64,000 bases of DNA from Chloroflexota bacterium (lineage in GTDB: Bacteria > Chloroflexota > Dehalococcoidia > Dehalococcoidales > UBA2162). Each line of letters begins with the position of its first letter. Within the stretch, counting starts at the first letter, position 1. The notes under the pieces were generated by a model. It was not told where the DNA came from, ran no database searches, and saw only the letters and a list, made by a program, of their open reading frames with translations. Below, in pieces: positions 4,146 to 44,988 of the stretch. The stretch covers positions 1,625 through 65,624 of the forward strand of contig JACPPR010000096.1 in assembly GCA_016190895.1 (NCBI GenBank). The letters are read 5' to 3'. The position numbers and the translations under genes are program-made.

Positions 4146-5450
4146 ATGAAATTGGAAATTCAAGTTAACAAACTGAGAGAGCTGATGACCCTGATGAAAC
4201 CGGTAATCCCCAGGAAGTCTACCCTAAAGGTCACCGGCTATATCAGGGTCGGTGACGGCAAAGCGGTGGCGACCGACCTGGAAACCATGGTCATATACGA
4301 CCTACCCCAGGCTACCGAGCCTATGCTCCTGCCTTATACCTCCCTTGCCGATACCCTGAAGTACATACCCGGCAATACACTCAAGATTGAGGCGCAGGGT
4401 AGGAAGCTTTCCCTGGCATGGGACGGCGGCACTGCTGTCTACCCCACCGAGGATGTCGAGGACTTCCCGGTGTTGCCCGAACTGGAAACCAGAGCCGAGG
4501 GCTTAATCGATGGCGACGCTCTGGTATCGGCGATGCAGGCCGCTTTACCCTACACGGCAACTGATAGCCAGCGGCCGGTGCTTAGCGGCGTGACCCTGGT
4601 GTTGGGCAGCCCTATCGAGGTAGCCGCGGGAGACGGCTTCACCATGTCCCATCAGGTGCTGGGTCTTACCTTCCCTCTTGAAGAGAAAGTGATAGTACCA
4701 GCGCGCAGCGTATCCGTCCTGGGGCATGTCTTCGACAAGACGCCGCGGACACCGCCATCAACTGCCGATTCCTTGATATCGGTAATTACCGCCAAGCGGC
4801 AGATCCACATGGCTCTCATCGGCGAAAACAAGCTCAAGGTCGACTTCGGCGAGTCGGCATCCGTCGTCATCAACCTGATACAAGGGAACCCGCCCGAATG
4901 GCTGCAGCTAATCCCCAAGGGACAACCTACCCTGCAGAGCCATCTCTTCGCCCCGCAGTTCGAAGCGGCGGTCAAACGGGTCCGGGACATCGCAAAGGAT
5001 GGTAGCGGTATTGTCCGCATGGCGTTCGCTGACGGCAAGCTGACCGTCTCCGCAGTAGGAGAGGAGCAGGAAATCAGGGCCACCCTGGACGTCATAAGCA
5101 CTCAGGGCGAGCCGGGGAGAACGGCCATCAACTATGCCTACCTTCTCCGTTACCTTACCGGCAAGCAGGGTATCATCACTTTATCCCAATACGACAAGAC
5201 CGGCCCGCTAGCCTTCGAGTACCAGAATTCGCCGCGTGTCCTTATCATGCCCATGTTCGTACAATGGGGCGATGAGGCGGTGGCCACCAAGGAGCCGGAA
5301 CCAGAACCTGAGGCGGTTGAGGAAAATCCGGAAGGGGAGGAACCAGAGGCATCTCTCGAAGAGGAGACTCCTCAGGGAGAGACGGAAGAAACTGTTACCG
5401 CAGCAGCGAAACCAGCCGGCAAGAAACGCCGCAGAAAGACAACTCCCTAA
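4146..5450 (+). CDS. DNA polymerase III beta sliding clamp homologue (element-encoded) with charged C-terminal tail
   Basis: The N-terminus MKLEIQVNKLRELMTLMKPVIPRKSTLKVTGYIRV...ATDLETM and RPVLSGVTLV...AAGDGF resemble DnaN. An extra Glu-rich then KKRRRK tail follows. Confidence 0.8.
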   Translation: MKLEIQVNKLRELMTLMKPVIPRKSTLKVTGYIRVGDGKAVATDLETMVIYDLPQATEPMLLPYTSLADTLKYIPGNTLKIEAQGRKLSLAWDGGTAVYPTEDVEDFPVLPELETRAEGLIDGDALVSAMQAALPYTATDSQRPVLSGVTLVLGSPIEVAAGDGFTMSHQVLGLTFPLEEKVIVPARSVSVLGHVFDKTPRTPPSTADSLISVITAKRQIHMALIGENKLKVDFGESASVVINLIQGNPPEWLQLIPKGQPTLQSHLFAPQFEAAVKRVRDIAKDGSGIVRMAFADGKLTVSAVGEEQEIRATLDVISTQGEPGRTAINYAYLLRYLTGKQGIITLSQYDKTGPLAFEYQNSPRVLIMPMFVQWGDEAVATKEPEPEPEAVEENPEGEEPEASLEEETPQGETEETVTAAAKPAGKKRRRKTTP

Positions 5451-5539
5451 TCTCGACCCGGGAAGGCGGGGGTGCTGGGGCAGGCAAGCTCCAGCACCCC
5501 TCTTTATGAGTGATTTACATACCATGAAAGGAGGTTTTA

Positions 5540-5739
5540 TGAAAATAACTTCTTACGTAGAACTAACACCGGCCCAGGAAAAGACCATTGAGGCACTGGA
5601 AACAGTTACCGTCAGGACAGCGCTTATCAAACCGGCTGTCGTGGCCACGATTCGTACCTTCGCCGCGCAGGAAGTCAGGATAACTATTGCTGCCGATGGA
5701 GGAATTGAAGACGCGGAGGTTCAATATGACAGCCTCTGA
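5540..5739 (+). CDS. hypothetical small protein
   Basis: ATG preceded by AAAGGAGG. The longer track ORF (5236..) overlaps the clamp gene in another frame and looks spurious. Confidence 0.45.
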
Positions 5740-6214
5740 ACGAAAAGTTGAGGGATGGATAGACGACATAGTCGGCGCCCTCTTCGACCCCATCATAGTA
5801 ACGCCCGGTGGCTGGGGAGATGACTTGCCCGAGTGGTTAAAAACAAGGGTTACTCTTGAGCGCCTTGCCGAAAACATAGTAGCAACCAGGGAAGGTAGAG
5901 AAATAACCGCTACTGATGCCGAAGCCGCCTGTTACCTCTTTACTGCCTCGCTCACCGCGCCGATCGGAGGCGACTGGACCCAGATATACCTGTACGTTGC
6001 CGGCGGCGAGTTGAAGGACAAAATGCCGGAAGACATAAAGGTCGAGTCGTTAACCGAGAGCCAGTGGCGCGACTTAAAAGAGTTGAAGAACTGGATTTAC
6101 CGGCAGCGGGTGAAGCACCGCAAGGAAAAGGCACACGGAGAGCGCCGTGAAACCAAAGGAGAAGCTAATACAAAAGAGCTGGAAACCAGGCCGATCCAGC
6201 CAACATTCTTCTGA
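5726..6214 (+). CDS. hypothetical protein, C-terminal QPTFF
   Basis: ATG at 5726 after GGAGGT. Overlaps the previous stop. Ends ...RPIQPTFF. Confidence 0.55.
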   Translation: MTASERKVEGWIDDIVGALFDPIIVTPGGWGDDLPEWLKTRVTLERLAENIVATREGREITATDAEAACYLFTASLTAPIGGDWTQIYLYVAGGELKDKMPEDIKVESLTESQWRDLKELKNWIYRQRVKHRKEKAHGERRETKGEANTKELETRPIQPTFF

Positions 6215-6333
6215 GGTTAGTCGGTCATTCTGCAGAGATAGCGAAGCACACTAAGTGTCGGATTCTGTACGGGTCAGTGTTCTTGAATATGACTCAACTA
6301 TATCTTCTTGCGCGTGTCCTGTTCAATTCAAAT

Positions 6334-6957
6334 CTATGTATGAAGTAATTCTGCTTCAGACAATAACCCTTGATTTTTGATAAAAGCGCTTACAGTCATT
6401 CTGTTTACGCCAAAGATTCTCGCAATCTCACATTTCGATACTTTTCGCTTTAAGAGGACCTGTATCACACTCTCTTGACCAGACAATTTGACCTTACCCG
6501 ATTTACTGCCTATCGGTCTGCCAAGTACAACACCTTCAGCACGTTTGCGAGCGAGTGCCTCTTTGGTTCTCTGACTGATGAGGTTTCGCTCTATTTCAGC
6601 CGATAATCCAAAAGCAAAGGCCAAAACCTTGCTCTGTATGTCCTCACCCAAGCGATAATTGTCCTTTATCGTCCAAACCTTGCATTCTTTACTCATGCAA
6701 AGGTTCAAGATTTCCATAATCATGAATAGATTTCGACCCAAACGTGACAACTCAGCGCAAATAATCAGATCGTCTTTTTGGACTTTCCTGAGTAATTTCC
6801 CAAGCTCGCGTTTGTCATAATTCTTTGTTCCGCTGATAGTTTCCTCAATCCAGCCATCGATTTGAATATTGTTTCGACTCACAAAATTCTCAATCTCAAA
6901 TCGCTGGTTCTCAACTGTTTGTTTCTCGCTGCTCACTCGGATGTATCCGTAATTCAT
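6334..6957 (-). CDS. small serine recombinase (resolvase/invertase, Hin/Gin-like)
   Basis: MNYGYIRVSSEKQ catalytic-Ser motif. C-terminal HTH (KCEIARIFGVNRMTV). RBS GGAGTGAGGAG before the ATG at 6957. The upstream part of the track ORF is repeat-derived. Confidence 0.85.
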   Translation of the reverse strand: MNYGYIRVSSEKQTVENQRFEIENFVSRNNIQIDGWIEETISGTKNYDKRELGKLLRKVQKDDLIICAELSRLGRNLFMIMEILNLCMSKECKVWTIKDNYRLGEDIQSKVLAFAFGLSAEIERNLISQRTKEALARKRAEGVVLGRPIGSKSGKVKLSGQESVIQVLLKRKVSKCEIARIFGVNRMTVSAFIKNQGLLSEAELLHT

Positions 6958-6991
6958 GGTCTCCTCACTCCTTTTCTTGTTAATATATAAC

Positions 6992-7082
6992 GAGCGTTTA
7001 TATTGAGCGAAACAGTGCGGCCAGCCGTTTTGATTCCAACGATAGTTGGACAATCCTTTCCCCTATTGAGCAAAGCATAAAG
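6992..7082. repeat. inverted repeat IR-A, left arm
   Basis: 91 bp. Reverse-complement of 8693..8783 with 2 mismatches (aligned by eye). Confidence 0.85.
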
Positions 7083-7196
7083 CGAAAAATTGAGGCTGTT
7101 GGCATTCCACTCAAAAAGTGGGATGTAAATATTTATCGAGGTGTTCTTACGGGCTATAACGACGCATTTATCATTTCTGGTAAGAAAAAAGACGAG

Positions 7197-7298
7197 CTTA
7201 TTGCTGCCGACCCAAAATCTGCTGAAATTATACGACCGATTCTACGTGGCAGGGACATCAAACGGTATCACTATGAGTTCGCGGATTTGTGGCTGATA
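7197..7298. repeat. inverted repeat IR-B, left arm
   Basis: About 100 bp, reverse-complement of 8477..8578. Perfect 53-bp core at 7209..7261. Confidence 0.85.
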
Positions 7299-7457
7299 GA
7301 TACTCACAACGGGATACGTGAGAAGGGGATACCACCTGTCAATGTGAATGGATACCCTGCTATCAAAGCACACCTGAATCAATTTTATGATGCGCTTGAG
7401 AAAAGGCTTGACAAGGGTGATACGCCCTACAATCTGCGCAGTTGTGCTTATACGGAC

Positions 7458-7480
7458 GATTTTTCCAAGCAGAAAATTGT
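7458..7480. repeat. inverted repeat IR-C, left arm
   Basis: The 23-bp sequence gatttttccaagcagaaaattgt is the perfect reverse-complement of 8265..8287. It encodes DDFSKQKIVW in both cassettes. Confidence 0.75.
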
Positions 7481-7882
7481 TTGGGCTGAACTAGCCAGGA
7501 CAGGGAATGCTTTTACAATTGATACGTTGCATTCCATTGTCTTAAACACATCCTATGTCCTTACATCATCCAGTGACGATATCAACGAATTGAAGTATCT
7601 ATCTGGAATGTTAAATAGCATGACGACGATGTTTTATATGAACTTAATATCTAGTAAATTCGATCAAACAGGATGGCGATGGTTAAAACAATTTGTAGAA
7701 CGGTTACCTATTCCCAAACTATCTTATAATGAGCAACAGCCATTCATCAAGATGGTTGATGAAATTCTCGATTTGAAACGAAAACACCTTGACACCACAA
7801 CTTTAGAAAGAGACTTGGACAAAATGATTTATAGATTGTTCGACTTTTCGGACGAAGAGATACAAGCAATAGAAGCGTGAGC

Positions 7883-10800
7883 TCACTTTCCCATTAAGAA
7901 AGTTCTCTCTTCTTCATTAAATCCATACAAGTCACAAATCATATCATCCAGCCTTTGTTCTTCAACAGTAGTCGGATTGTTCTGACTTTTTGCCTCTAAG
8001 ATCAGACTGACACATGAAATGAAAGGCGTCTTTTCAGCTTCACTCAATATGGGAACCGGAAGTTTCTCTATAAACATCGGCTTATATTCAAAGTACCCGC
8101 CATTCCTTGTGACGCCAAGGCCTCGAACATAAAAATCTGCTACTTTAGAATTCAGCACGGACAGCAAATATCTATCTCCAGGGACAATCATGGTGGCCGG
8201 AGCACTGATGAAGTATAGTTCTCCAACAAGTGCATATTGAGCACGCAGACAAAGGTTTCCCCAGACAATTTTCTGCTTGGAAAAATCGTCCCAATAGCTT
8301 ATGCTATCCTGTGTTTCAAACCATTTGTTATTCGTTTTTTTCCGCGCAGTAACTATTTGGCCACCCACAATATGCTTTTCCCCAGTCTGCCGAAGGCGTT
8401 CTATTCCAAATGAAAGAAGATATTCTTTTACCGATGGATATTGCTCAATATCGTACTTTAGGCTTGGAAAGGTAGCTATCAACCACAAATTCGCGAACTC
8501 ATAGTGATACCGCTTGATGTCCCTGCCACGTAGAATCGGTCGTATAATTTCAGCAGATTTTGGGTCTGCAGCAATAAGTTCATCTCGTTTTTTCCGATCA
8601 ATAATGAAAGCCTCGTTGAATCCAGTTTTTATCCCGTAGTTTATATGTACATCCCACTCCTTGAGTGGAACACCAGCAGTATCAATTTTTCCCTTTATGC
8701 TTTGCTCAATAGGGGAAAGGATTGCCCAACTATCGTTGGAATTAAAACGGCTGGCCGCACTGTTTCGCTCAATATAAACGCTCAAATTGTTCAAGCAATC
8801 ATCCTTGATCACGCACGCTTCGGTTTGACCCTTGTTCTTGCCCTTCTCAAAAATCATAATGCTGACATCCACCGTTGCTGAATCAAAGATTCTCTGCCCC
8901 GCAAAATCTATCAGACGCAGCGGATTGGTCTTGTGGGCAAAGAATTCCCGAATCGCCTTACCATAACCAGCGCGTATCCATTTGTTGGAAGTGATGAATG
9001 ATAAAACTCCGCTATCAGCAAGAAGGCCGTATCCCCTCTCATAAAAAAGGCAATAAATATCACCCATGCGCGCAAAGGATTGATACTGCATCTTTTCCAG
9101 ACGGTCAGCCTCTTGCTGCACAGATTGGAGTTGGATATAAGGCGGATTGGCTATCACCACATCAAATCCATCACTTACGCCAAACATCCACCCGGTGTCG
9201 AACCAATCACATCTTTTGTATGAGAAGGGGTCCCATTCGGCGAGCATGCGAGTCTGGGTCGTATCTTTGGATTCTATCTTCTTGGCAGCTCCCGTGAGAT
9301 CGGTCTTTACTGCGACTAGCATTTTTCTCGCGTGTTCGCTTAGTTGTGCCTGTACCGCTTTGAATTCGTGCTTGATAGCCTCTTTGTTTTCGCTATCGGC
9401 AAAATAACTCTTCCTGAGTGTCGCCAATTTGCTAATCAATTCTTTGTTTTCCATTAATCCCATACCAGTGATCTCGGGTAAGCCGATAAGCGTATTTGCC
9501 GCTACGAACTTGAATTCCAGATTGGGTAAAGGCTCGATGCCTCTGTTTCCCTCATTGTCCAGAACCATCTCATCCACAACGAGAGATAGGAAACACCGCA
9601 GTTTGGCAATCTCCACGGCGATGGGCTGGATGTCCACGCCATAGATAGAGTCACGGATAATCATCAGCTTGCGGATATACGCCCAGTTTTCCCGCTTGAC
9701 GTTCTTCTCCACAGTCTGGCGGACGATACTATCTAGCGTGCTCAGATACTGCTTTCTCCAGATTTCAAGCTTCGGGTCAACCCTCTCCAGCGCGAGCAAC
9801 ATCCGGTGCAGGATGCCCATCGGGAAAGCTCCCGAACCGCAGGCTGGATCTATAATTTTAATTTCCTTCAGAGCTGTAACTACGCTGTTCTTCTGCTCAT
9901 CTGTAAGCTCTACACCCTCATCTTCATACGAGAGCAAAGCAGCAAGGTTGTCCTCAGATATGGCGGTCTTCGTGAGCAGGTACTGCTTCAAAGACTGCTC
10001 CACCATATAATCAACAATGACGCGCGGGGTGTAATAGCTACCGGTTGCCTTGCGGGCGGTCTCGCCCGTCTCTGGCACCACCTCTGCCAGCAGGTTCTCA
10101 AAGATTCTGCCGAGCATTTCTGGGTCGACCGAGACTTCCGCGTCCACAGTGCTGTTTTCATCTATGGTGAAGTTATACTGTTCCAGAACGCTGAAGAAAT
10201 CCTTGAACCAGGTATCCGGTATTTTAAGAGCGTCAATCAGTGATCGCTTATAAAAATCGTTCTCGTGCGGCTCGAACAGCCCGCCGTTCAAGAACGGAAC
10301 TTTGTCTGCCTCCGGAACCGCAACTGGCTTCCGTTCTTTAACCGGCGTATTCATCAAGCCGAAGAAGAGCGGCTCCAGGACGGCATGGTAATAGCCGAGA
10401 TGCGTACTTGCTGCCGCAGTCGAAAGCGCGCTGTCAGAAATAAGCGGGATGCCCGCCGCTGACTTCTTATGCTTCAAGAACCAGCAAAATATCGCCCGGC
10501 CGATAAGCCTGACCGCGAATTCTTCATACGCCTTTTTGTCACCATCGTCGACTGACGACAATGTCAGCTCTTTTGGAAAGCCGCCTCTGCCGGTGAGGCG
10601 GTAGAAATAACGGGCAATTTCCTCATAGAATAGCTTATTGACCTTCTCCACGGAGAAAGCGTCTTTGACAATATCCAAACTGGCAAAGCTACATTCACCG
10701 ATTCTCTTTTTGAAGGTGTTGTTGGTCTGGCCGCTGCTGACAAAGTAAGTGAAGCGGCGGAAATTGCTCCAGACCGTGCGCGCGGCGTCCGGCGTGCCGT

Positions 10801-11143
10801 AAACCAGGCTCAGGCGGAAATTGCCGGACTGGTCGCTGAAGACGAACATGCCGGCGTCATACCGCATATATTGTTTGAGGATTTTCCTGGCCTTTTCGTA
10901 CTGGGCTTTCTTGCCGCTTCGCTCGGTTAAACCCCCGGCGATACTGGCCGTGACCACTACCAGCCTTTCGGCGGGACTGAAGTTGATTTCGCCAATTGCG
11001 TGGAAGCCTGAGAACTCGTCATCATCGTATTCAGAGAGGTCGTCTTCCGCTTCGGCATAGCAGTTAGTTGCATTCTGGAAGAATTCGTTCAAGTAGCCCT
11101 CTACGCCTTTATCGATGACTTTTTGCAGCAGTTTCTTGCTCAT
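7883..11143 (-). CDS. large N6-adenine DNA methyltransferase with C-terminal specificity region (Eco57I / PglX / DrmMI-like)
   Basis: 1086 aa. Motif I IIDPACGSGAFPMG and motif IV VVIANPPYIQ. The start overlaps the helicase stop (ATGA). Confidence 0.85.
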   Translation of the reverse strand: MSKKLLQKVIDKGVEGYLNEFFQNATNCYAEAEDDLSEYDDDEFSGFHAIGEINFSPAERLVVVTASIAGGLTERSGKKAQYEKARKILKQYMRYDAGMFVFSDQSGNFRLSLVYGTPDAARTVWSNFRRFTYFVSSGQTNNTFKKRIGECSFASLDIVKDAFSVEKVNKLFYEEIARYFYRLTGRGGFPKELTLSSVDDGDKKAYEEFAVRLIGRAIFCWFLKHKKSAAGIPLISDSALSTAAASTHLGYYHAVLEPLFFGLMNTPVKERKPVAVPEADKVPFLNGGLFEPHENDFYKRSLIDALKIPDTWFKDFFSVLEQYNFTIDENSTVDAEVSVDPEMLGRIFENLLAEVVPETGETARKATGSYYTPRVIVDYMVEQSLKQYLLTKTAISEDNLAALLSYEDEGVELTDEQKNSVVTALKEIKIIDPACGSGAFPMGILHRMLLALERVDPKLEIWRKQYLSTLDSIVRQTVEKNVKRENWAYIRKLMIIRDSIYGVDIQPIAVEIAKLRCFLSLVVDEMVLDNEGNRGIEPLPNLEFKFVAANTLIGLPEITGMGLMENKELISKLATLRKSYFADSENKEAIKHEFKAVQAQLSEHARKMLVAVKTDLTGAAKKIESKDTTQTRMLAEWDPFSYKRCDWFDTGWMFGVSDGFDVVIANPPYIQLQSVQQEADRLEKMQYQSFARMGDIYCLFYERGYGLLADSGVLSFITSNKWIRAGYGKAIREFFAHKTNPLRLIDFAGQRIFDSATVDVSIMIFEKGKNKGQTEACVIKDDCLNNLSVYIERNSAASRFNSNDSWAILSPIEQSIKGKIDTAGVPLKEWDVHINYGIKTGFNEAFIIDRKKRDELIAADPKSAEIIRPILRGRDIKRYHYEFANLWLIATFPSLKYDIEQYPSVKEYLLSFGIERLRQTGEKHIVGGQIVTARKKTNNKWFETQDSISYWDDFSKQKIVWGNLCLRAQYALVGELYFISAPATMIVPGDRYLLSVLNSKVADFYVRGLGVTRNGGYFEYKPMFIEKLPVPILSEAEKTPFISCVSLILEAKSQNNPTTVEEQRLDDMICDLYGFNEEERTFLMGK
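8265..8287. repeat. inverted repeat IR-C, right arm
   Basis: Partner of 7458..7480. Confidence 0.75.
8477..8578. repeat. inverted repeat IR-B, right arm (inside the MTase gene)
   Basis: Partner of 7197..7298. Perfect core at 8514..8566. Confidence 0.85.
8693..8783. repeat. inverted repeat IR-A, right arm (inside the MTase gene)
   Basis: Partner of 6992..7082. Confidence 0.85.
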
Positions 11144-14100
11144 TTCTGTTCCCCGATATTTTCAATGGCGACAATGACCTCTTTATCCAATTGCCCGATT
11201 TTCTGCTTTATTTTAGCCAGATAATCCGGGCCGAGGTCCAGTTGCAGGCTGCCGAGTTCTTTTTGAACTATGGCAATCTTCGCTTCATCTCCAGCATCTG
11301 CCGCTAGGTTAGCGATGCGTCTTAAAGTGTAATCGGAAAGCGTCTTATAATCCTCGATGTCCTCCACCAGGTTCAACAGGAGTTGGCGGAACTCACGATA
11401 GTTATCTGTCTTGTCCGCTAATAGAGCTTTCACCTTTAAGTGAGCTTTTTTCTCGACGCTCAGCTCGCTGGAAGGCACGCCGGACTTTTCTTTCAGGTCC
11501 TTGATTCTGGTGTATTTCTCCCAGAAGCCGTCACTGAGCGGCAGAGCCTTTTCATCCTTGCCGCATTTAATCAACGGCAATGCTTCTTCAAACAGCAGCT
11601 CGGCCGGTTCTTTGGTTTCTCCTGACATGCCCCTGATAAATAGTCCCATCCCTTTCTTGATAAAGACGGTCAGTGAGTATTCATCGTTTGATTTGGCTAC
11701 TTTCACGCGGGAGGGGAGGGTGGCGATCCTCTGCTTGGTTGCTTCATCGATTTCAGCATACATTCTGCGTATGCCGGTCTGGAAACTCTCCAGCTCCAGC
11801 CCGTCCGGATTTTGCTGAATCTTCTCGAATAATCCGGAGGCCGTGGGTTCTTCGTCTGCTTCAAATACCTTTGAATCCTCCCCAAGGGTATTGTGAATCA
11901 TAAACATCTTCTCTGTGGCGATTTGTCTGCTCCGCACGATCGATGCGCCCTGGAGGGTAGGGAAGAAGTTGTAAACATAGAGGTTATCGAAGACCTTCTT
12001 ACTGATGCGGTTGATTCTGCCGACGCGCTGGACAACTCGGGTGGGATTCCAGGGAATATCGAGATTAATCACGGCGCCGGCGCGGTTAAGATTCACGCCC
12101 TCTGACATTTTATCTGTGGTAATCAGAATCTGATATTTGTTGTTCTGGTTTTTATACGTGGTATCGAAGTTGCTTATGATTTCTGTAGCTTTCGTCTTAT
12201 TCAAATCCCCTTTGACACTGATAATCTGGCCGCTGAATTTCTTTTCCAGGCGAGCCTCGACATACTTAACCGTATCGGCGTATTCGGAGAAGACAATTAC
12301 CTTTCTTATCGGCTCAGTGGCTTTGTCCTTTTGCTTCAGAATCTTGGATAGTTCAGTTTCCAAAGCAGCTAATTTCGGGTCATTATCTACCAATTTCAGG
12401 GTATCCAGTTCATCGAGGATTCTTCCGAAGAGGGCAATATCGGCTTCAATATCTGCCAGGAACACCTTCTTTTGTTTGAATTCTTTATTCAAATCATAGA
12501 CCTTGTAGTGTTTGGGGAAATTGCCCGAGGTGAGCATCTGTTCGAACTTCTCCAACTCCTCGGCAATATCATCCTCGTCATCCTGGTATATCCGGTCGAT
12601 AAGCTCGCGGTCGAGGATATATTTCTCTCCGCTGTTAACGATGAAGGTTTGGACCATTTCGGTGATGCGTTTGAAGTTTTCCATACTCTGCCGGAACGCG
12701 CCAAAGGAACTTTCGAACCTTTTCACCAGCAACCGTCTCATAAAGTCATACAAGTTCTTCTGTATCAACGCTGCCCGGTTTTCCTCTTCGTCAAGTGAGC
12801 CGGGGTCCTTGCCAACAATACCAGCTTCATACTCGAAGGGGCGGTAGATGGTGCCTTTGAAATCGCCGCCCTCACCGAAATATTTTGAAATAACGCGGTC
12901 GTAAAACTCCGACTGCTCCGGGGTCAACGCGAAAAAAGCTTCACACGGGTCTTTGACCTCGGACAACTCATAGATTTCTTTTGAATATACCGGGTCTTTC
13001 TTTAAGTCAATGCGGTTGCGCCGGATGGTGACCGGCGAGATGACCGATTTGATGTCATTGGCCAGGTATTTAGATCGTGCAGTTACCCGTTTCAGGTCAA
13101 TCCTATCTGACTCAAACAGAGCTTTATAGTCCGCTAGGGCGCTTTCGCGCCTGTCTTTATCCGTGGAATTGTGGTTCTTCTTGATATTTGAGAGTCGCCT
13201 GAAAGTTTGGCTATACTGCCGGAATCTTTCATCCAGATTGTTAGACAAGATAAGACTTGATTTACCCGGCACGGTAAACAGCTTGAGCATCGAGAAAATG
13301 TCCGCGGGTGTGTTGTTGAAAGGGGTGGCAGTGAGCAAGATAACGATTTTATTGCGGCAGATATCACTCAAAATTGAGTATGCTTCTGTATCCTGGTTAC
13401 GGAATCGGTGCGCCTCGTCGATGATTACCACTTCGAAGTCGCTCTCATTCTGCACCAGCTTGAGCGTGTCTCTCAAGGTCTCCAAACCGCAACTTCTGAT
13501 TTCCCATCCGTTAAGCTCGAAATCTTGCCTGTATTTGTCCCAGCCGGTCCGGATGCCGTCATCAACCCCGCCCTTGAGAGCTGGCGGGCATATGATTAAG
13601 CCCCTCTTGTACAGGCACTTAGCGACCATTCCTGCAATAATGCTTTTCCCAAGACCAACGACGTCCGATATTATGACGCCATTTTCTTTTTCGATAATAC
13701 TCAAAGCTTGCGCGACAGCATTTACCTGGTAAGCATATTTCTTGTACCCGTTTTTCTCCAGAAGCTGGAAGACGTAATCCTTGATGTCTTTGGGCTTATG
13801 CAATTCCAGATACGTTTTTAGAACAAAAGCAAAGGCTTCGTAAGGAGTTACTTCAGCTATTAGTGTGGCTTCTCTCAGTAGTTTTACTAATTCCCATCTA
13901 AAAGCATCGTCTTCGGTGATTTTGACGGCTTTCGTCCAGAGGTCATCGAAATAATCCTCTGCCTCCTGAGTTCCGTAATCACTGATTTCAACATTAAACT
14001 CATTTTGCTGGCCTAACCCGGCCCGAGTGAGATTGCTACTTCCGGTGATGAAACAACACGGTTTCAAGTCTGCATGGTCGTCCTTCATGTTGAAGAGGTA

Positions 14101-14520
14101 CAATTTGGCATGATTAGGTTCACGAGTCTTCTTGATGATCAGTCTGTTGTCCAGAATGGCCTGAACAAAGAACTTGGCTTGTTCATAGAATTCTTCAGTA
14201 TCAAACTCATCCGAATTGACGGACTTGACGATCGATTCTTTGAACAGTTGTTGATGTTTGTTCCCATCGATTTTACCAACGGCTCCGTACTCAACAAGGC
14301 CGTAGCCTTGTTTATCGACACTGAGACCCACAAGAACCTTGGTAACTACGTCGGGATTGTGCTTGATAGCCTCATACAATTCTCTAATACCGGAGAAATA
14401 GAAGAAACCGACCAGGAATTTCAACTCCTTGCTGAAACCAATGAGCTTTGAGATTCTATCCTTTAGGATCTTGCTGCCCGCATTATTGATGAAGGTGTTT
14501 TGTGACCTTGAGTCCGACAT
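11140..14520 (-). CDS. PLD-family nuclease domain fused to an SNF2-family helicase
   Basis: N-terminal HKD motif NHAKLYLF...ITGSSNLT. SNF2 motifs DVVGLGKSIIAG, DEAHRFRN, LLTATPFNN and VVQRVGRINRI. ATG 14520 lies after AAGGA. The ORF stays open to TTG 14559. Confidence 0.85.
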   Translation of the reverse strand: MSDSRSQNTFINNAGSKILKDRISKLIGFSKELKFLVGFFYFSGIRELYEAIKHNPDVVTKVLVGLSVDKQGYGLVEYGAVGKIDGNKHQQLFKESIVKSVNSDEFDTEEFYEQAKFFVQAILDNRLIIKKTREPNHAKLYLFNMKDDHADLKPCCFITGSSNLTRAGLGQQNEFNVEISDYGTQEAEDYFDDLWTKAVKITEDDAFRWELVKLLREATLIAEVTPYEAFAFVLKTYLELHKPKDIKDYVFQLLEKNGYKKYAYQVNAVAQALSIIEKENGVIISDVVGLGKSIIAGMVAKCLYKRGLIICPPALKGGVDDGIRTGWDKYRQDFELNGWEIRSCGLETLRDTLKLVQNESDFEVVIIDEAHRFRNQDTEAYSILSDICRNKIVILLTATPFNNTPADIFSMLKLFTVPGKSSLILSNNLDERFRQYSQTFRRLSNIKKNHNSTDKDRRESALADYKALFESDRIDLKRVTARSKYLANDIKSVISPVTIRRNRIDLKKDPVYSKEIYELSEVKDPCEAFFALTPEQSEFYDRVISKYFGEGGDFKGTIYRPFEYEAGIVGKDPGSLDEEENRAALIQKNLYDFMRRLLVKRFESSFGAFRQSMENFKRITEMVQTFIVNSGEKYILDRELIDRIYQDDEDDIAEELEKFEQMLTSGNFPKHYKVYDLNKEFKQKKVFLADIEADIALFGRILDELDTLKLVDNDPKLAALETELSKILKQKDKATEPIRKVIVFSEYADTVKYVEARLEKKFSGQIISVKGDLNKTKATEIISNFDTTYKNQNNKYQILITTDKMSEGVNLNRAGAVINLDIPWNPTRVVQRVGRINRISKKVFDNLYVYNFFPTLQGASIVRSRQIATEKMFMIHNTLGEDSKVFEADEEPTASGLFEKIQQNPDGLELESFQTGIRRMYAEIDEATKQRIATLPSRVKVAKSNDEYSLTVFIKKGMGLFIRGMSGETKEPAELLFEEALPLIKCGKDEKALPLSDGFWEKYTRIKDLKEKSGVPSSELSVEKKAHLKVKALLADKTDNYREFRQLLLNLVEDIEDYKTLSDYTLRRIANLAADAGDEAKIAIVQKELGSLQLDLGPDYLAKIKQKIGQLDKEVIVAIENIGEQK

Positions 14521-14585
14521 TGATTGAGTCCTTCGTAGTAAGCTATGTTCCGAAATCAAGTCCCTCTGATTATCGTAATTATACT

Positions 14586-14600
14586 ACGATTGCCAATCGT
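14586..14600. promoter_or_regulatory. 15-bp perfect palindrome in the putative helicase-MTase promoter
   Basis: ACGATTG-c-CAATCGT. On the minus strand it lies between a TTGACG and a TATAAT (14-nt spacer), upstream of the 14520 start. Confidence 0.3.
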
Positions 14601-14797
14601 CAACAAACCATCATCATTGTGCTGCCGGTCAGTGGGGCGATTTTACCCTTCGTGGGTCACAAATCGTCGGCTTGTTTACCGAGCTCGATGTGGTCGTTTG
14701 CGGGTATTCAACCAGAGTGGTAAAATTGCGATTGTTGAAATGTCGTGCTTCCAGTGACTGGACCACTGTGGAGAATGGACACTTAAAAGGATAAGAC

Positions 14798-16858
14798 ATG
14801 CCGATAACCGCTACCCAAAAGGCACAAGCCGAACAGCATCAGTGGACTGCGGCAAGGGATGGCGCACCGCAGGTGAGACTTGTCGCCGGACCGGGCACTG
14901 GAAAGTCATACAGCATCGAAAAGCGGGTCGCTCATCTTCTGACGAACGGAGCGACTCCTGGCAACGTATACATCATCTCATTCACGCGAGCCACGTGCGC
15001 AGAACTTCGTGACCGCATCACGCGTTTCTGTAGCACTCTTACGTGTGCAAACGAAGCGACACAAGTGCGAGTTTCGACAATGCATTCACTTGCTCTTCGA
15101 ATCCTACGGCGAGCCAACTTGCTTGCTTCGTATCCCAGTACTCCGATTATGTTGGACGACTGGGAGCAAGCCAAGATTTACGATAGGGAATTGGCCGAAA
15201 GCCTCGGGTCCACACCTTCCCGCGCTGCTGAAATCAGACTCGCTCATGACTCGCAGTGGCAAACCCTCAATCCGCAGTATGTCAACCAGGCACAGATAAC
15301 ACCTGCCGAGGTTCAGGGGTTTAACGCGTTCCATTCTGCTCGAACCAACCTATATTGTTGTGTGCTTCCGGGCGAAGTGATCTTCAGATGTGTTCAAGCT
15401 CTCCAGCAAGGCGCTTTAGGAGCCAGCCAATTACCTCAAATCGATCACTTAGTCGTTGATGAATTCCAGGACCTTAACGCGTGCGACCAGGAATTCGTGC
15501 ATCTGCTGTGTGCAATGAACACGATTTTGTTTGTAGCAGGTGACGACGACCAGAGTATCTATTCTTTCCGTCACGCAGATCCCAACGGGATAGTTCAGTT
15601 CCAATCCGCCTATCCGGCATCGGCTACACACATATTAAATGACTGCTTCCGATGCGCTCCGAACATTCTTAGCGCAGCCAGCCGATTGATAGCCTATAAT
15701 CCAAATAGAGTTCCAAAGAATCTTACGTCGCTCTATAGTACTGCCTCGCCTCCTGTTCAAGGCACAATGCGAGTATGGTCTTTTCAGACGGCCCAAGAAG
15801 AGAGTCGAGCCATCGCCCAATCCTGCCAAGAACTACTCAAAGCTGGAATGGCGGGACAAGAAGATGAAATTCTAATTCTAATCTCCAATCGTCGGGTTCA
15901 ACTCGATATCTTGGCACAGGAATTAGGAAACCTTGGCCTTCCATACGAACCTCCTCGGGGTAGGGCACTCACAGATGAGTTTGAAGCCATTAGGGCCGTA
16001 TACTCGTTTCTTCGTATTGCCAAAGACAACTCGTCTGGCGAAGAAGACTACCCTTCACATAGGGACCTACTTGAGGTTCTCTCCGGTGTAGGAGCCTCCA
16101 CTGCGAAGGCTGTTGCGGATGCATGTATCTCCAACAATCAGAACTTCCGTCAACTGTTCTACTTGCCAACTTGCCCCGCTTGGCTTCCGGGACGGTGCCC
16201 TTCGGCGGTACAGCGTGTGATGGCTATTGTCCAGGCTGTTCGTGCGTGGAGCATGAGCGATACGCTGGCGACCCGGAGCAGCGACATCATGACTCTTCTG
16301 TCATCACAGGCGTTCACATCCGGTATCCACGCAACAAGCAGCTTGGCAACATGGAACGCCCTTCTTGGCTCACTTCCGTCTCAGATGACACTGGAGGAAT
16401 TGCTTCAGTTCCTTGCAGCAGACAGTGAATCTGATCAACAGACGATAATTAATTCGGTCAACCAGCGTATCGGAGGGACCCAGCCCCAAATCCAGGCTCC
16501 GAGCCGGATTCGGATTCTTACTATGCATGGGGCCAAAGGGCTAAGTGGAAAGGTCGTGTTTATTCCTGGAGCGGAGCAGGGCCTTATGCCTAGTTTCAAA
16601 GCCTTACAAGCCACGGGATTACTCATTGAACAACGACGCCTTTTTTATGTATCGGTCACCCGAGCGATGGCCTCCTGCATAGTCTCTCACGTGGCTCAGC
16701 ATTCGGGTGCACAAGCGATGGCTTTGACGCAGCGATCTGTCACGCGACTGACCCGCTCACAGTTCCTGAATGAGATGAATGTCTCAAGTGTCACACGCGC
16801 CTCGGGCCTGACGCAGGCAGAGGCACAAGCGATAGCGAGAGACGTCAACAATCTATGA
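14798..16858 (+). CDS. UvrD/Rep-family (SF1) DNA helicase
   Basis: Walker A LVAGPGTGKS, VVDEFQDLN, LTMHGAKGLSGKVVFIPG and RRLFYVSVTRA. Confidence 0.85.
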   Translation: MPITATQKAQAEQHQWTAARDGAPQVRLVAGPGTGKSYSIEKRVAHLLTNGATPGNVYIISFTRATCAELRDRITRFCSTLTCANEATQVRVSTMHSLALRILRRANLLASYPSTPIMLDDWEQAKIYDRELAESLGSTPSRAAEIRLAHDSQWQTLNPQYVNQAQITPAEVQGFNAFHSARTNLYCCVLPGEVIFRCVQALQQGALGASQLPQIDHLVVDEFQDLNACDQEFVHLLCAMNTILFVAGDDDQSIYSFRHADPNGIVQFQSAYPASATHILNDCFRCAPNILSAASRLIAYNPNRVPKNLTSLYSTASPPVQGTMRVWSFQTAQEESRAIAQSCQELLKAGMAGQEDEILILISNRRVQLDILAQELGNLGLPYEPPRGRALTDEFEAIRAVYSFLRIAKDNSSGEEDYPSHRDLLEVLSGVGASTAKAVADACISNNQNFRQLFYLPTCPAWLPGRCPSAVQRVMAIVQAVRAWSMSDTLATRSSDIMTLLSSQAFTSGIHATSSLATWNALLGSLPSQMTLEELLQFLAADSESDQQTIINSVNQRIGGTQPQIQAPSRIRILTMHGAKGLSGKVVFIPGAEQGLMPSFKALQATGLLIEQRRLFYVSVTRAMASCIVSHVAQHSGAQAMALTQRSVTRLTRSQFLNEMNVSSVTRASGLTQAEAQAIARDVNNL

Positions 16859-16920
16859 GTATGGCTGCACGGTTTTCTAACTTTTCATCTTCTTCAAGTG
16901 TGATAGATATCAGAAGTTGC

Positions 16921-17000
16921 TGGAGCGCAGCGATCGATCGCTTCTTTTCAAAAAGGAGTTCGGGACTGTTCCGAGTAGCCCAACTGAGGGGATTCGAACC
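16921..17000. repeat. direct repeat copy 1 with tRNA 3'-end-like core
   Basis: Core 16957..16999 is agttcgggactgttccgagtagcccaactgaggggattcgaac. It matches 19939..19982 with 2 mismatches plus 1 indel. Weaker similarity extends about 35 bp to the left. Confidence 0.7.
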
Positions 17001-17219
17001 GGCTATCAAAACACTAGCGGGAAAGTCTTCTCGAAAGTTTTACCTTTTGAACGGAATGGTGGACCTTAGCGGGTTCGGACTTTATAGACGTGGTCCCTTA
17101 GCGTAGCTGGCTGGCCATTGGAAGGTTATTGAAAAGACTCTCCGTCCCCTTTTGGTGGAACCTCTAGGGCCACGCTACCAATACGGTAGTGTATCATACA
17201 TACCACCAATACCGAATAC

Positions 17220-17247
17220 TTGACAATCACCATCACACGATTATAAT
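17220..17247 (+). promoter_or_regulatory. near-consensus sigma70-type promoter (TTGACA-N16-TATAAT)
   Basis: TTGACA at 17220..17225 and TATAAT at 17242..17247. It lies about 85 nt upstream of ATG 17333, which has a GAGGAGGG RBS. Confidence 0.55.
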
Positions 17248-17332
17248 GTAAGACAAAGAATAATTGTGTTGGAGGTAACCGGGAGGGGGCTGTTGCAAAA
17301 GGAAAAGCTGAGTCTTAACGAGGAGGGATTCC

Positions 17333-17782
17333 ATGGGCAGACATTTATCAGCAGAAATCGACAATAGCTTCGAGAGGAAACTGGTAGTCGAAAACGCTCT
17401 GGTCGCCGCTGCCAAAAGTGAGTTGGGTGAAAAACTAAGTGCGCGAGACCGAGCCAATTTGGAAGAGATAGTGAAGCTCTTCGAAGCTATCTTGCAAGGA
17501 GAACAGCAGTTACGGTCTCCGAGCTTGTCAGCTGTTTCTATTGACATGGCACAGGTTGCAAACAGGGTTGGGAGTATTTACAATACGAGATTCAAATTTT
17601 CCCAGTTTATCGCATTTGTGGCAGAGTTAAAGCAGATTGCTGAGGCAATGCTCGAAAACCGCAGAGTTATTGAAAGAAAGAGGCGCAATTTTGATGAGTT
17701 TCTCAATTTGCTCTCAGAATCAGAAGGCAAAGAAATAGAGCGGCTACAGTCTCTGCCGCTTGGGAGTTTCTCTGTGGCATGA
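17333..17782 (+). CDS. hypothetical alpha-helical protein
   Basis: 149 aa with a strong RBS. Its stop overlaps the next start (ATGA). Confidence 0.6.
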   Translation: MGRHLSAEIDNSFERKLVVENALVAAAKSELGEKLSARDRANLEEIVKLFEAILQGEQQLRSPSLSAVSIDMAQVANRVGSIYNTRFKFSQFIAFVAELKQIAEAMLENRRVIERKRRNFDEFLNLLSESEGKEIERLQSLPLGSFSVA

Positions 17783-19212
17783 GCACCCCGGCGGCGATTG
17801 CCCAGGACGCTTTGAATCTACTTGTTTCCCGCAGTAGAAGCGTTCGATTGTCGGCGGAGGCGCTCCTAGCAAAAGACTACCCTTCGGAAGTTCCTCGTAA
17901 TCTGATTCGCTGTGTGGTGTGCGCGACAAATCGGATTGACGCAGAAGTCTCCGAGATGTCATTCAGATTGAAGGCCAAACCTGAATATTCTGAGGTCACT
18001 CTCAAGGAAGCAAAGCTTCGTCATACTTTTCTCACTTATCTTCAAACGGTGATACTGTCTCTTGTTGATGGCGCCGAAACGGGTAAGGCTCCGGCTGAAT
18101 GGATCTGGCCAATCCAACGCATGGTAGAGGAGCTTTTCCCTGGGTGCCAAATTCTGGTCAGGTCGGTACACGAACTGAACTATTTCTTTGCTCCTCTTGG
18201 TGCGATGATCCAGAAGAAATTTGCGTCACTAGGTATGGACGACATTCTCAAGGATAACGGCCTTCTTGAGGAGATCTGGATGCTAGGGACATCTTCGTTC
18301 CCTCCTAGCGGAATTTTGACTCATTGTTTAATTGCCCATGAGATTGGCCATGGTATATATGAAACACGCAAACTGGGCGACCAAATTCTGAGGTCAGTTA
18401 AGATAGATGACCGTGCTGCTTCGAATATCGTTGATCTCATCGCTTCACAAATGGTGGAAGAGTCTTCGAGTCAAGAAACGGGTCCAAGGATTACGGGTAC
18501 ACGACTAGATACGCACATAGACAGAAGTTGGCTTGAATTGTCTGTAAATGCAAGACTCAAAGAAATCCTCTCCTGTTGGGCCGAAGAGTTTGCTTGCGAC
18601 GTGATAGGGTTAAGAATCCTTGGTCCCGCGTTCCTGTTATCGCAACTCTATTTCTTATTTCCGCTAGCTTCTATCGATGTGGGCGATGTTGAACACCCGA
18701 CCCCTCGGATGAGGCTGCGGTTATCAATCAACGCTCTACTTGGAACTGAAGAAGGACTTGGATACCGAATCGTTAAGTCACTGGATATTCAGAGCGTTTT
18801 ACAGAATTGGCAGAAAACTATCATGTCGTCAGAACCGAAGGCTAATGACCCGTATTTCGATGAGGCCTATAAAATGTTACGCCCAAGCCTGCGGGAGATA
18901 TTGAAGTTGTGCAAAAAGGAAACTAAGACATTAGCATACAGTCCGGACCGCTTAGACAAGGATGTGCCTAAACTTCTGACTCGTATTGGAGACGGTATTC
19001 CTCCTAATGAGCTTTGGGATGAGAAATCACAGTGTTTCCAGCCTGCTTATATGGCTTCAATCCTAAATGCAGGGTGGCTAGCTTTCGTTGCACCAGAGTT
19101 GCCCATGCCTTTTCGGAGTGTGACCAAGCAAGAGGCAGAAGGTAGGTTGCTTTCTTTGGTCGAGAAGGCAATGGAGTATTCTGAATTGGCACGGTTGAGC
19201 CAAAAGAAGTAA
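17779..19212 (+). CDS. HExxH zinc-metallopeptidase-like protein
   Basis: 477 aa. CLIAHEIGHGIYE (HExxH) and a downstream EEFACDVIGLRILGPAF helix. Translationally coupled to both neighbours. Confidence 0.65.
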   Translation: MSTPAAIAQDALNLLVSRSRSVRLSAEALLAKDYPSEVPRNLIRCVVCATNRIDAEVSEMSFRLKAKPEYSEVTLKEAKLRHTFLTYLQTVILSLVDGAETGKAPAEWIWPIQRMVEELFPGCQILVRSVHELNYFFAPLGAMIQKKFASLGMDDILKDNGLLEEIWMLGTSSFPPSGILTHCLIAHEIGHGIYETRKLGDQILRSVKIDDRAASNIVDLIASQMVEESSSQETGPRITGTRLDTHIDRSWLELSVNARLKEILSCWAEEFACDVIGLRILGPAFLLSQLYFLFPLASIDVGDVEHPTPRMRLRLSINALLGTEEGLGYRIVKSLDIQSVLQNWQKTIMSSEPKANDPYFDEAYKMLRPSLREILKLCKKETKTLAYSPDRLDKDVPKLLTRIGDGIPPNELWDEKSQCFQPAYMASILNAGWLAFVAPELPMPFRSVTKQEAEGRLLSLVEKAMEYSELARLSQKK

Positions 19213-19213
19213 T

Positions 19214-19861
19214 ATGTCAACACTTGCTGCTAGCGAGATCAGGCGAAGAATCCGGAGCACTCAAAATGACGCGCTAGTTATCACGCCTCTACTGAATGAA
19301 GCTGATCAGGTTCGTGGAGCATCTGTGGATGTTAGGTTAGGAAACTACTTTATCTCGTTCGTCCGTGGGAAGAAGGGCATTGTGGACCCCAAGAAAATGC
19401 AGGATATCTCCGACCGATACGAGACAAATGAGGAAATATACGTGCCTTATGGTAGGAATTTTATTTTGCATCCCCGCCAATTTGTCGTAGGGGGTACTCT
19501 TGAATACTTCGGCTTGCCGAAAGATCTAGCAGCTTATGTGGTTGGTCGATCATCTTGGGGTAGACTGGGACTGGTAGTTGCTACCGCGATAGGAGTTCAT
19601 CCTGGCTATCGGGGCATTATCACATTGGAACTGACCAATCTTGGTGAGGTGCCAATATTACTGTATCCGGGTTGGTCTATCGCTCAAGTGTTTTTCCAAA
19701 CTATCATAGCAGATGCGAATTGTCCCGTGGAGGGATGTGATGTGGACAATTCAAGGTACAGCCTTGCGGTCAAACCGGAGATGAGTCGTCTGGTAGAGCC
19801 GGAAGACTTAAGGCATTTGGAAGAAGCGATCAACAAGCGGGGCGGCTTAAGGCAGACGTAA
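19214..19861 (+). CDS. dCTP deaminase (Dcd/dUTPase-fold) family protein
   Basis: ASVDVRLGN, GRSSWGRLGL and VHPGYRGIITLELTNLG follow Dcd-family motifs. It starts 2 nt after the previous stop. Confidence 0.75.
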   Translation: MSTLAASEIRRRIRSTQNDALVITPLLNEADQVRGASVDVRLGNYFISFVRGKKGIVDPKKMQDISDRYETNEEIYVPYGRNFILHPRQFVVGGTLEYFGLPKDLAAYVVGRSSWGRLGLVVATAIGVHPGYRGIITLELTNLGEVPILLYPGWSIAQVFFQTIIADANCPVEGCDVDNSRYSLAVKPEMSRLVEPEDLRHLEEAINKRGGLRQT

Positions 19862-20183: not shown

Positions 20184-20555
20184 ATGGAAATATTCAAGAT
20201 AGCTGACTATATTAAGAAAGTGAACCCGGAGCCTGACCAACGGCTGACTATTCAGCTTCTGGAGAAGAAGGCGGAGAGCATGGTCGGGATGTTCATCGTG
20301 CTGCCTCCCGGCGGGCAGACGCCTTACCACTTCCATGACAAGCGCGAATCGATACTCATTGTCATCAGCGGCAAAGCGAAAGAGATGGTCGAAGGCAGGA
20401 AAATCCCCATCGAGTCCAATGACATCCTGTTCATCCCGGCCAAGCAGAAACATGGCGTTCTGAACGATAGCGGCCAGGAATTCCGCTTTATCGAGTTTCA
20501 AGTGGGCAAGCCCGATGAGCCGGATAGGGTCGAGGTCGAGTGGCGGGAGAGCTAG
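20184..20555 (+). CDS. cupin domain protein
   Basis: GGQTPYHFHDKRESILIVISG...FIPAKQKHGVLN. ATG follows GGGAGG. Confidence 0.75.
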   Translation: MEIFKIADYIKKVNPEPDQRLTIQLLEKKAESMVGMFIVLPPGGQTPYHFHDKRESILIVISGKAKEMVEGRKIPIESNDILFIPAKQKHGVLNDSGQEFRFIEFQVGKPDEPDRVEVEWRES

Positions 20556-20610
20556 GAAGATTGGACGGATTTATCTATCCTGCCGATTCTAGAGGCACCG
20601 CAACAAATGA

Positions 20611-20690: not shown

Positions 20691-20738
20691 AGACTTGCTA
20701 TTTTCGGGGTAATGCCACAATCACAATAATGAAGTTGG

Positions 20739-43557: not shown

Positions 43558-43580
43558 GAGATTCTCCTGAGAATAAAGAA

Positions 43581-44960: not shown

Positions 44961-44988
44961 TCTTCTCGAATAGAATTCATCCCCTTGG

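Follow-up and report, generated by a model that had tools for sequence, protein, structure and literature searches.

Programmed inversions that alter genes have been sought by screening bacterial genomes, and 22 such loci have been confirmed with long reads (Milman, Yelin and Kishony, NAR 2023; PMC9881135). The confirmed cases include Type II restriction-modification (RM) enzymes: in one locus the coding sequence (CDS) of a helicase with PLD and SNF domains lies immediately upstream of the enzyme, and in a second the helicase lies downstream (PMC9881135). Here we describe a locus of this kind in a 64,000-nucleotide (nt) stretch of Chloroflexota DNA (assembly GCA_016190895.1, contig JACPPR010000096.1, positions 1,625 to 65,624 of the forward strand), referred to below, at its full length, as the window. 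The locus combines the gene of a large N6-adenine DNA methyltransferase (MTase), a start-less, oppositely oriented copy of the part that encodes its C-terminal target-recognition domain (TRD), a small serine recombinase gene and a gene for a PLD-SNF2 helicase; very probably, it is a phase-variable restriction-type defence system in which the TRD is swapped by DNA inversion.

By their published description, the Type II RM loci with a PLD-SNF helicase match the window locus in architecture, and in both the repeats join the MTase gene with a shorter CDS of opposite orientation. The features of this class for which the window was tested were found there, namely an Eco57I-type MTase with a fused TRD, a neighbouring PLD+SNF2 CDS and in-frame inverted repeats; coexisting orientations, a further feature of the class, were found in a related element (locus L086 versus L087, L088 and L090). 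Published Type II RM inversion loci are homologous to Cj0031 of Campylobacter jejuni (Bacteroides ovatus CP083813.1:5322008-5329826; CP044495.1), some inversion loci have more than two variants, with nested repeats mentioned, and Mpi-family serine recombinases are enriched beside inversion targets with an odds ratio of 16 (PMC9881135). From gut metagenomes, a 2025 preprint reports 2-8 genotypes and 294 structural variants that affect MTases or specificity units (PMC11741434). An earlier note on this DNA had implied that the design was new; this is not supported, as long-read-confirmed inversions in the same architecture are in print (PMC9881135). The kind of system is already described, and the window locus is a further member in another lineage; since the basic phenomenon is published, the finding is confirmatory rather than surprising. 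What differs is the host: the long-read-confirmed cases come from Actinobacteria, Bacteroidetes, Firmicutes and Proteobacteria (PMC9881135), whereas the window belongs to an uncultured member of the Dehalococcoidia (Chloroflexota). DnaE encoded in the window shares 68-70% identity with proteins labelled Dehalococcoidales bacterium, Chloroflexota bacterium or Chloroflexi bacterium, and 77-78% with unnamed proteins from metagenomes.

More distant parallels exist. In type I hsdS inversion (SpnD39III, Bacteroides fragilis, “epigenetic invertons”), silent and expressed modules are likewise swapped at in-frame repeats, so that a single locus yields several specificities of methylation and restriction (PMC7672463, PMC4948785, PMC7641763). 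Type I systems have a separate HsdS with two TRDs, and their recombinases are nearly all of the tyrosine type (PMC7672463); in the window, by contrast, the TRD is fused to the MTase, the exchange would involve sub-segments of a single TRD, and the recombinase gene encodes a small serine enzyme. Assignment to type I RM was rejected: Pfam finds TaqI_C and Eco57I but no Methylase_S, there is no HsdS, HsdM or HsdR, and the partner is a PLD-SNF2 protein. Programmed (nested) inversions also rewrite the recognition part of PglX in type 1 BREX and of DrmMI in Class 1 DISARM (PMC9881135). These, too, are large PglX/MmeI-like adenine MTases, and the model of the window MTase superposes on PglX/BrxX (4e-21); in Lactobacillus rhamnosus PglX, however, the variable part is internal and two inversions are needed (PMC9881135), whereas the swap in the window locus would extend to the C-terminus. 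Neither family accommodates the locus: BREX_1_MTaseX reaches 85.7 bits where the cut-off is 500, with no PglZ or BrxC nearby, and DrmD reaches 156 bits where it is 610, with DrmMI matching at just 3e-25. A scan of the neighbours, which comprise a UvrD-like helicase, two open reading frames (ORFs) with no family matches and a DCD-like protein, found no DrmA or DrmB (DUF1998) gene near the locus. Cj0031 itself shares the Eco57I-type MTase-TRD class and phase variability. It is switched ON/OFF through a polyG tract and has its own nuclease (PMC4889913, cited in PMC9881135); in the window, inversion would change specificity instead, and the PLD-helicase probably provides the nuclease in trans. A literature search returned no experimentally characterised defence system pairing PLD-SNF2 with an Eco57I-type MTase beyond Milman et al.

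The expressed methyltransferase, its silent cassette and its partner

Three co-directional genes on the minus strand (recombinase, MTase, helicase) and one start-less cassette on the plus strand make up the locus. Its parts are as follows (aa, amino acids; IR, inverted repeat; V, variable segment):

6334..6957, minus strand: gene of an Mpi-family small serine recombinase, 207 aa (Pfam, NCBIfam)
6984..7880, plus strand: silent, start-less TRD cassette (298 codons, then a TGA stop) that converges on the MTase gene (ORF, TaqI_C)
6992..7127: silent arm of IR-A; its partner, 8648-8783, encodes MTase residues 787-832
7128..7196, plus strand: silent variable segment V0, NIYRGVLTGYNDAFIISGKKK; its partner, 8579-8647, encodes HINYGIKTGFNEAFIIDRKKR
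7197..7303: silent arm of IR-B, encoding the TRD motif IIRPILRGRDIKRY; its partner, 8472-8578, encodes MTase residues 856-891
7304..7448, plus strand: silent variable segment V1, about 48 codons
7449..7485: silent arm of IR-C, encoding Y(T/W)DDFSKQKIVW; its partner, 8260-8296, encodes residues 950-962
7486..7877, plus strand: silent variable segment V2, about 131 codons
7878..7885: tail-to-tail junction TGAGCTCA, with the stop codons of both copies, 2 nt apart
7883..11143, minus strand: gene of the N6-adenine DNA MTase (expressed copy), 1086 aa, with a C-terminal TaqI_C TRD (Pfam, PADLOC)
7886-8259: V2a, active counterpart of V2, about 125 codons, residues 962-1086
8260..8296: active arm of IR-C
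8297-8471: V1a, active counterpart of V1, about 58 codons, residues 891-949
8472..8578: active arm of IR-B
8648..8783: active arm of IR-A, within the MTase gene
11140..14559, minus strand: fusion gene of a PLD (HKD) nuclease-like domain and an SNF2 helicase, 1139 aa (Pfam, PADLOC)
14569..14596, minus strand: candidate operon promoter TTGGCA-16-GATAAT upstream of the helicase gene (consensus match alone)

The frame of the cassette (6984-7877) stays open for all 298 codons and holds no ATG, GTG or TTG until a TTG at 7287. It encodes a TaqI_C domain (Pfam, 7.4e-12) and, aligned as protein with the last 300 aa of the MTase, shows near-identical blocks alternating with diverged ones. Three pairs of inverted repeats join the two copies. 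IR-A (6992-7082/8693-8783) has 2 mismatches in 91 nt; a repeat finder extends it to 6992-7132/8643-8783 (141 nt, 92%), and over 136 nt the arms are 92.6% identical with a perfect run of 40 nt. IR-B (7197-7298/8477-8578) has 4 mismatches in 102 nt and a perfect 53-nt core at 7209-7261; the repeat finder places it at 7149-7303/8472-8626, and its arms are 95.3% identical over 107 nt. IR-C is perfect at 7458-7480/8265-8287, where both arms encode DDFSKQKIVW, and reaches 37 nt at 92% in the repeat finder (7449-7485/8260-8296). A and B share one gapless register; they are nevertheless two blocks, not one, because the 69 nt between them (7128-7196), just 56.5% identical, part stretches of 92.6% and 95.3% identity. 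The remaining inverted repeats in the same 8 kb do not exceed 39 nt, and any longer than 22 nt are merely 72-75% complementary; the three repeat blocks are far beyond chance. The two copies of V1 have no alignment at the DNA level and are divergent as proteins. TaqI_C covers motif B, V1, IR-C and the first ~70 residues of V2; therefore, V1 and V2 are parts of one recognition domain. When inversion at A, B and C was simulated in all 8 combinations, 8 distinct open MTase frames of 1076-1092 aa resulted, and the displaced, silent copy remained open in every product.

Most of this geometry had been set out in the earlier note: the positions of the three repeats, with the two mismatches of IR-A and the perfect core of IR-B, the start-less plus-strand cassette as a divergent copy of the C-terminal ~300 residues of the MTase, the divergence of the segments between repeats, the tail-to-tail stops and the in-frame placement of every repeat, with up to 8 intact chimeras. 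Repeat finding, direct comparison, alignment, the TaqI_C match and the simulated inversions reproduced each of these points. The note's central proposal, that inversion exchanges the C-terminal target-recognition region, gains support from omega values, from concerted evolution and from the two orientations found in a relative whose recombinase is 75% identical, all described below.

How would such a locus work? Each block is set, in frame, within a conserved protein motif of both copies. Inversion between the two arms of a block would exchange everything distal to that block: the expressed enzyme would gain V0, V1 and/or V2 of the silent copy, giving up to 8 enzymes, and the displaced segments would be stored in the silent cassette, which has neither promoter nor start. 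The population would become mixed for methylation specificity and, via the PLD-helicase partner, for restriction specificity as well. The adjacent recombinase is the presumed catalyst, acting at cores inside B and C, and A may be kept alike through homology-driven exchange. The swapped segments would alter the recognised sequence, and the helicase-PLD protein would restrict unmethylated DNA.

Pfam identifies Eco57I (1.2e-37), N6_Mtase and, at residues 869-1030, TaqI_C in the MTase, which has its NPPY motif at residues 666-669 and matches the PADLOC Type IIG model (3e-151) over residues 159-1081, leaving the first ~198 profile positions unmatched. Its AlphaFold model (pLDDT 88, pTM 0.85) shows an alpha/beta domain in residues 1-140, and Foldseek matches the model to CamA (4e-25) and PglX/BrxX (4e-21) as well as to M.BseCI, BpuSI, MmeI and DrdV; as modelled, the overall fold resembles PglX, MmeI and CamA. 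In an alignment of 100 homologues, the only invariant positions among the first 160 residues are R110, R130 and T143, and this stretch contains no conserved D/E...K triad and no invariant acidic residue or lysine. The MTase is thus one with no recognisable nuclease of its own. The helicase gene has PLDc_2, SNF2-rel_dom, ResIII and Helicase_C domains (Pfam), a HAK...GSSN motif and a match to the PADLOC model “HKD+Snf2” (2.2e-39). Judged by these domains, its PLD part is probably the nuclease, supplied in trans, and the whole protein is probably the restriction and translocase subunit.

Could the switch serve mainly epigenetic gene regulation, as a phasevarion in which restriction is absent or irrelevant? 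Phase-variable methyltransferases are often regulators (PMC11741434 and other published abstracts), and an MTase whose first 160 residues lack conserved acidic or lysine catalytic residues would fit such a role. We nevertheless consider it unlikely that regulation is the main purpose: the MTase is translationally coupled to the PLD-SNF2 protein through a 4-nt overlap (helicase stop/MTase start), and the locus lies beside a UvrD/GajB-like helicase in an island of low GC content. The partner is also conserved. In a scan for relatives of the MTase in one genome per species (GTDB representatives) across many phyla, a PLD-SNF2 homologue lay beside the MTase in 54 of the 60 related loci that had room for it. 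A regulatory role does not preclude one in defence.

Selection on the silent copy and inversion in a relative

If the proposed restriction-type switch operates, its silent half should bear the marks of use, and a second genome allows a look. In Dehalococcoides mccartyi (L001) the genes are arranged as in the window: recombinase, inverted cassette, MTase, PLD-SNF2. The DNA of its module shares 86-89% identity with 6361-7489 and 7696-9169 of the window, and the stop codons of the two D. mccartyi copies are likewise 2 nt apart. The silent cassettes of the two genomes were compared codon by codon for omega and synonymous divergence (dS). Omega in the silent-only segments is 0.05 for V0, 0.18 for V1 and 0.29 for the V2 tail, at dS of 0.66-0.84; therefore, these segments are unlike never-translated DNA, which would drift to omega 1 and gather stops, and they are under purifying selection. 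V0 could reach the expressed gene only through exchange at IR-A.

Site patterns were also scored among the four arms, silent and active, of the two genomes. Sites were called concerted when the arms agree within a genome and differ between genomes, and orthologous in the opposite case. Concerted and orthologous sites number 13 and 0 in IR-A, 5 and 1 in IR-B, and 1 and 22 in the V0 stretch; A and B together (18/1) differ sharply from V0 (1/22; Fisher p ~1e-9). The repeats are therefore homogenised within each genome, while the V0 segment has been kept different since before the split of the two lineages. Divergence at synonymous sites separates the blocks: dS is 0.61 in IR-A (the background level), 0.18 in IR-B and 0 in IR-C, compared with ~0.7 elsewhere. 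Synonymous differences in B and C together are depleted (4/31 sites against a background of 0.45; p ~1e-4), which suggests a DNA-level site in these two blocks; the DNA of IR-C is identical in L001 and in the metagenome contig L085. The V2 core of the cassette (window 7490-7695) has no alignment to L001 or L085; because it is unalignable between flanks that are 85-89% identical, it has evidently been replaced, and the break falls exactly at the inner edge of IR-C.

Both orientations occur in public assemblies of a related element. Its loci L086-L090 encode a recombinase 75.5% identical to that of the window, and a 795-nt segment at L086 6892-7686 has the opposite orientation, at 100% identity, in L087, L088 and L090, between samples with flanks 99.9% identical. 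A 29-nt motif-C repeat, GAGGATTTTTGTAAGCCAAAAATT, close to the window's GACGATTTTTCCAAGCAGAAAATT, bounds the inverted segment, and either orientation encodes an intact enzyme of 1148 aa, the difference lying in the last 124 aa. Inversion at the homologous C repeat is real in this element. At the window locus itself we infer inversion rather than observe it, because the collections searched contain no other assembly of the window strain.

The wider scan places both loci in context. Among 56 GTDB-representative loci with enough flank, 7 have a recombinase homologue (60-79%) together with an inverted partial cassette; these belong to Bacteroidota, Chloroflexota, Ignavibacteriota, Elusimicrobiota and Actinomycetota. 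In recombinase-bearing loci the repeats always fall on two TRD motifs, B (IIRPILRGRDIKRY) and C (Y.(D/E)DF.K.KI(V/I)(W/Y)); some loci have only B, others only C, and “long” cassettes such as that of the window add an A-like stretch. The silent cassette of the element seen in L086-L090 (P0083) is present on 47 contigs, and this element also encodes Mob_Pre and DUF3987 proteins. Databases contain thousands of stand-alone entries of 280-310 aa from many phyla, named “TaqI-like C-terminal specificity domain-containing protein” or hypothetical (hit list P0002-P0120); they are probably not independent genes, because the ones inspected are silent cassettes beside a full-length MTase.

Several of these loci have peculiarities of their own. 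In L087, the recombinase gene has at its 3' end an inversion of 116 nt (5883-5998) relative to L086, between 8-nt flanking repeats (AATTGCTC/GAGCGATT), which replaces the C-terminal helix-turn-helix (HTH) with unrelated residues and keeps an ORF of 204 aa; this may be a self-inactivating invertase lock or an assembly artefact. L089 (1737-7571) has the recombinase and the silent cassette, then an inverted 413-nt piece, then unrelated DNA with a tyrosine integrase, and is a rearranged or truncated locus in which integrase DNA replaces MTase and helicase. The Riemerella anatipestifer loci L002/L003 (CP029760.1, 4500-13600) retain an intact recombinase and cassette, with the MTase in several short ORFs, the helicase split in two and no inverted repeats detected. 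L085 (Ga0265297_10027463) has a module 85% like that of the window; at its end, 126 nt repeat its own silent V1 plus IR-C without mismatch in the reverse complement (4647-4772, 5530-5655), joining a V1s-type to a V2a-type segment via IR-C. This end may derive from a mixed population, as an inversion junction, or may be a longer perfect repeat; its 126 nt match k-1 for an assembly at k=127, a value of k assumed here.

The recombinase and the mechanism of exchange

Which enzyme would do the switching? The gene next to the cassette, whose ATG at 6957 is 34 nt from IR-A, encodes an N-terminal resolvase catalytic domain (Pfam Resolvase, 1.3e-33) with a YIRVSS motif and a C-terminal HTH with a weak match to HTH_23. 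Its match to NCBIfam NF009949, “master DNA invertase Mpi family”, scores 335 bits against a cut-off of 272 and covers profile positions 1-198 of 203; Mpi is the sole NCBIfam family whose curated cut-off it reaches. The best match in the PDB is Gin, at 1e-10. The earlier note had the position and the small serine type right but called the enzyme Hin/Gin-type, and here the 335-bit match decides otherwise: by its profile matches, the protein is best classed as Mpi-family and not, strictly speaking, as Hin/Gin-type. The D. mccartyi enzyme shares 94% identity with it, and those of the other loci 60-79%.

Mpi proper, from Bacteroides fragilis, inverts promoter segments at many dispersed loci. The window recombinase resembles it in exceeding the curated cut-off of the family, and differs in appearing to be dedicated to, and co-inherited with, one coding-sequence shufflon. 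In the Gin/Cin/Hin family, a small serine invertase swaps the C-terminal segments of phage tail-fibre genes, and the Min system of plasmid p15B has several crossover sites. The likeness lies in the adjacent small serine invertase and the alternative C-terminal specificity segments of an expressed gene; the differences are the target protein and the recombinase, which is of the Mpi family and distant from Gin. No Gin-like 26-bp dyad crossover site was recognised among the window repeats, where B and C share only an 18/26-nt similarity, nor was a Fis-type enhancer identified, though no search was aimed at one.

Several results weigh against inversion by this enzyme at the window locus. Public proteins, metagenome contigs and a contig index yielded no second assembly of the window strain; public proteins include no chimeric form (a silent-cassette query found itself at 100% and its next match at 68%), the metagenome scan gave no junction from the window strain, its IR-C core search finding 2 contigs, neither of that strain, and an exact-protein look-up of the MTase in the contig index found nothing on record. 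Comparison of A, B and C defines no recombinase core site. B and C do share 18 of 26 nt (TTATACGACCGATTCTACGTGGCAGG versus TTATACGGACGATTTTTCCAAGCAGA), just exceeding the 17 reached by the best of 100 shuffles; the similarity falls in different reading frames and partly outside the perfect part of IR-C; A versus B and A versus C are at null level. The synonymous sites of IR-A are not conserved between genomes (dS 0.61). Finally, repeats of 91-107 nt with perfect runs of 40-53 nt could also serve RecA-dependent exchange.

This last point leads to a different catalyst: general RecA-dependent recombination or gene conversion would swap the copies, and the serine recombinase would not be the agent, or only partly. 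IR-A (136 nt) and IR-B (107 nt), with their perfect runs of 40 and 53 nt, are sufficient for homologous exchange; IR-A, homogenised within genomes at a dS of 0.61 between them, fits homology-driven conversion better than a fixed protein-binding site; and inversion independent of a recombinase has been reported for the pneumococcal SpnIII locus (PMC6620402). At IR-A, RecA-dependent exchange is a live alternative, because this block behaves as a homology-maintained repeat. As an account of the whole locus it is distinctly improbable. The recombinase accompanies the inverted cassette across phyla at 60-94% identity, whereas the MTase backbone retains just 32-45%; L006, L074 and L086 have a single repeat of 24-37 nt, short for RecA, and L086 inverts even so; and the conservation of synonymous sites in B and C between genomes points to a DNA-level site. 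That the cassette is instead a relic left by partial gene duplication, or by a transfer long ago, at a locus fixed in one orientation, is scarcely credible: the window strain is known in one orientation alone and degraded versions exist (the fragmented MTase of Riemerella L002 beside an intact recombinase and cassette), but the cassette frame is open over 298 codons with omega of 0.05-0.29 in its silent-only segments, the repeats have perfect cores, evolution of A and B is concerted, an intact recombinase scores above its family cut-off, and all 8 chimeras are open.

Transfer of the module and its wider setting

Recombinase-driven TRD switching, as favoured here, raises a further question: does the switch belong to its MTase, or does it travel? 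From residue 651 to the C-terminus, the MTases of the window and D. mccartyi are 75-92% identical; before residue 651 the figure is 12-60% in 50-residue blocks (36% by tblastn). A sharp mosaic breakpoint lies at window 9169-9195 (MTase residue ~650), just before NPPY. The helicases of the two loci are 30% identical and the recombinases 94%. Motif variants were compared across loci L004-L083: where a recombinase is present, the P of motif B is preceded by R (mostly CGA) and motif C has DDF or EDF, whereas recombinase-free loci have K in motif B and EEFEKEK in motif C; the exceptions are a few loci truncated at the end of the MTase gene or shortly beyond it. On these motifs, invertible TRDs form a distinct subfamily. 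Because of the mosaic identities and the shared motif variants, the recombinase, the cassettes and the C-terminal 40% of the MTase seem to move jointly. A tentative reading, slightly less likely than not, is that the recombinase, the cassettes and the C-terminal 436 residues of the MTase (~40%) form a portable switch module, grafted horizontally onto unrelated MTase/PLD-helicase backbones across phyla, in which B and C would be recombinase sites and A would be maintained by homology.

The system has a GC content of 42-50%, a low-GC island between flanks of ~55%. By consensus matching, TTGGCA-16-GATAAT is the top minus-strand promoter match within 6100-15000, and no terminator-like site was found between the MTase stop and the recombinase gene. 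A phage or plasmid setting was rejected, as dnaE and further chromosomal genes are present in the window and a comparison with PHROGs yielded no structural matches. Divergent from the PLD-SNF2 gene, a plus-strand run at 14798-19861 begins with a UvrD-family helicase (PADLOC GajB match, 1.6e-47), followed by ORFs of 149 and 477 aa with no family matches and a dCTP-deaminase-like (DCD) gene; the UvrD/GajB-like gene and its followers, all in the lower-GC island, may be further defence genes. Beside the island, on the plus strand (4146-5450), is a divergent DnaN-like sliding-clamp gene, below its curated cut-off, and D. mccartyi L001 has a DNA_pol3_beta_3 gene (20499-20879) near the homologous system. 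Farther away, on the minus strand (42691-45583), a conventional RM pair consists of an NgoMIV-family endonuclease (288 aa, 1e-109) and an N4/N6 DNA methylase (537 aa), and a PIN-domain gene adjoins it.

With this locus, the switching of restriction and methylation specificity by inversion, very probable here, reaches the Dehalococcoidia as well. This class includes the organohalide-respiring Dehalococcoides, in which phage defence and barriers to DNA uptake are little studied and genetics is hard. The pairing with D. mccartyi offers tests of silent-cassette activity that need no reads (purifying selection, concerted evolution and synonymous-site conservation), and these are applicable to the thousands of stand-alone “TaqI_C domain proteins” that are probably mis-annotated silent cassettes. 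If module transfer is true, existing defence systems could acquire specificity switches ready-made.

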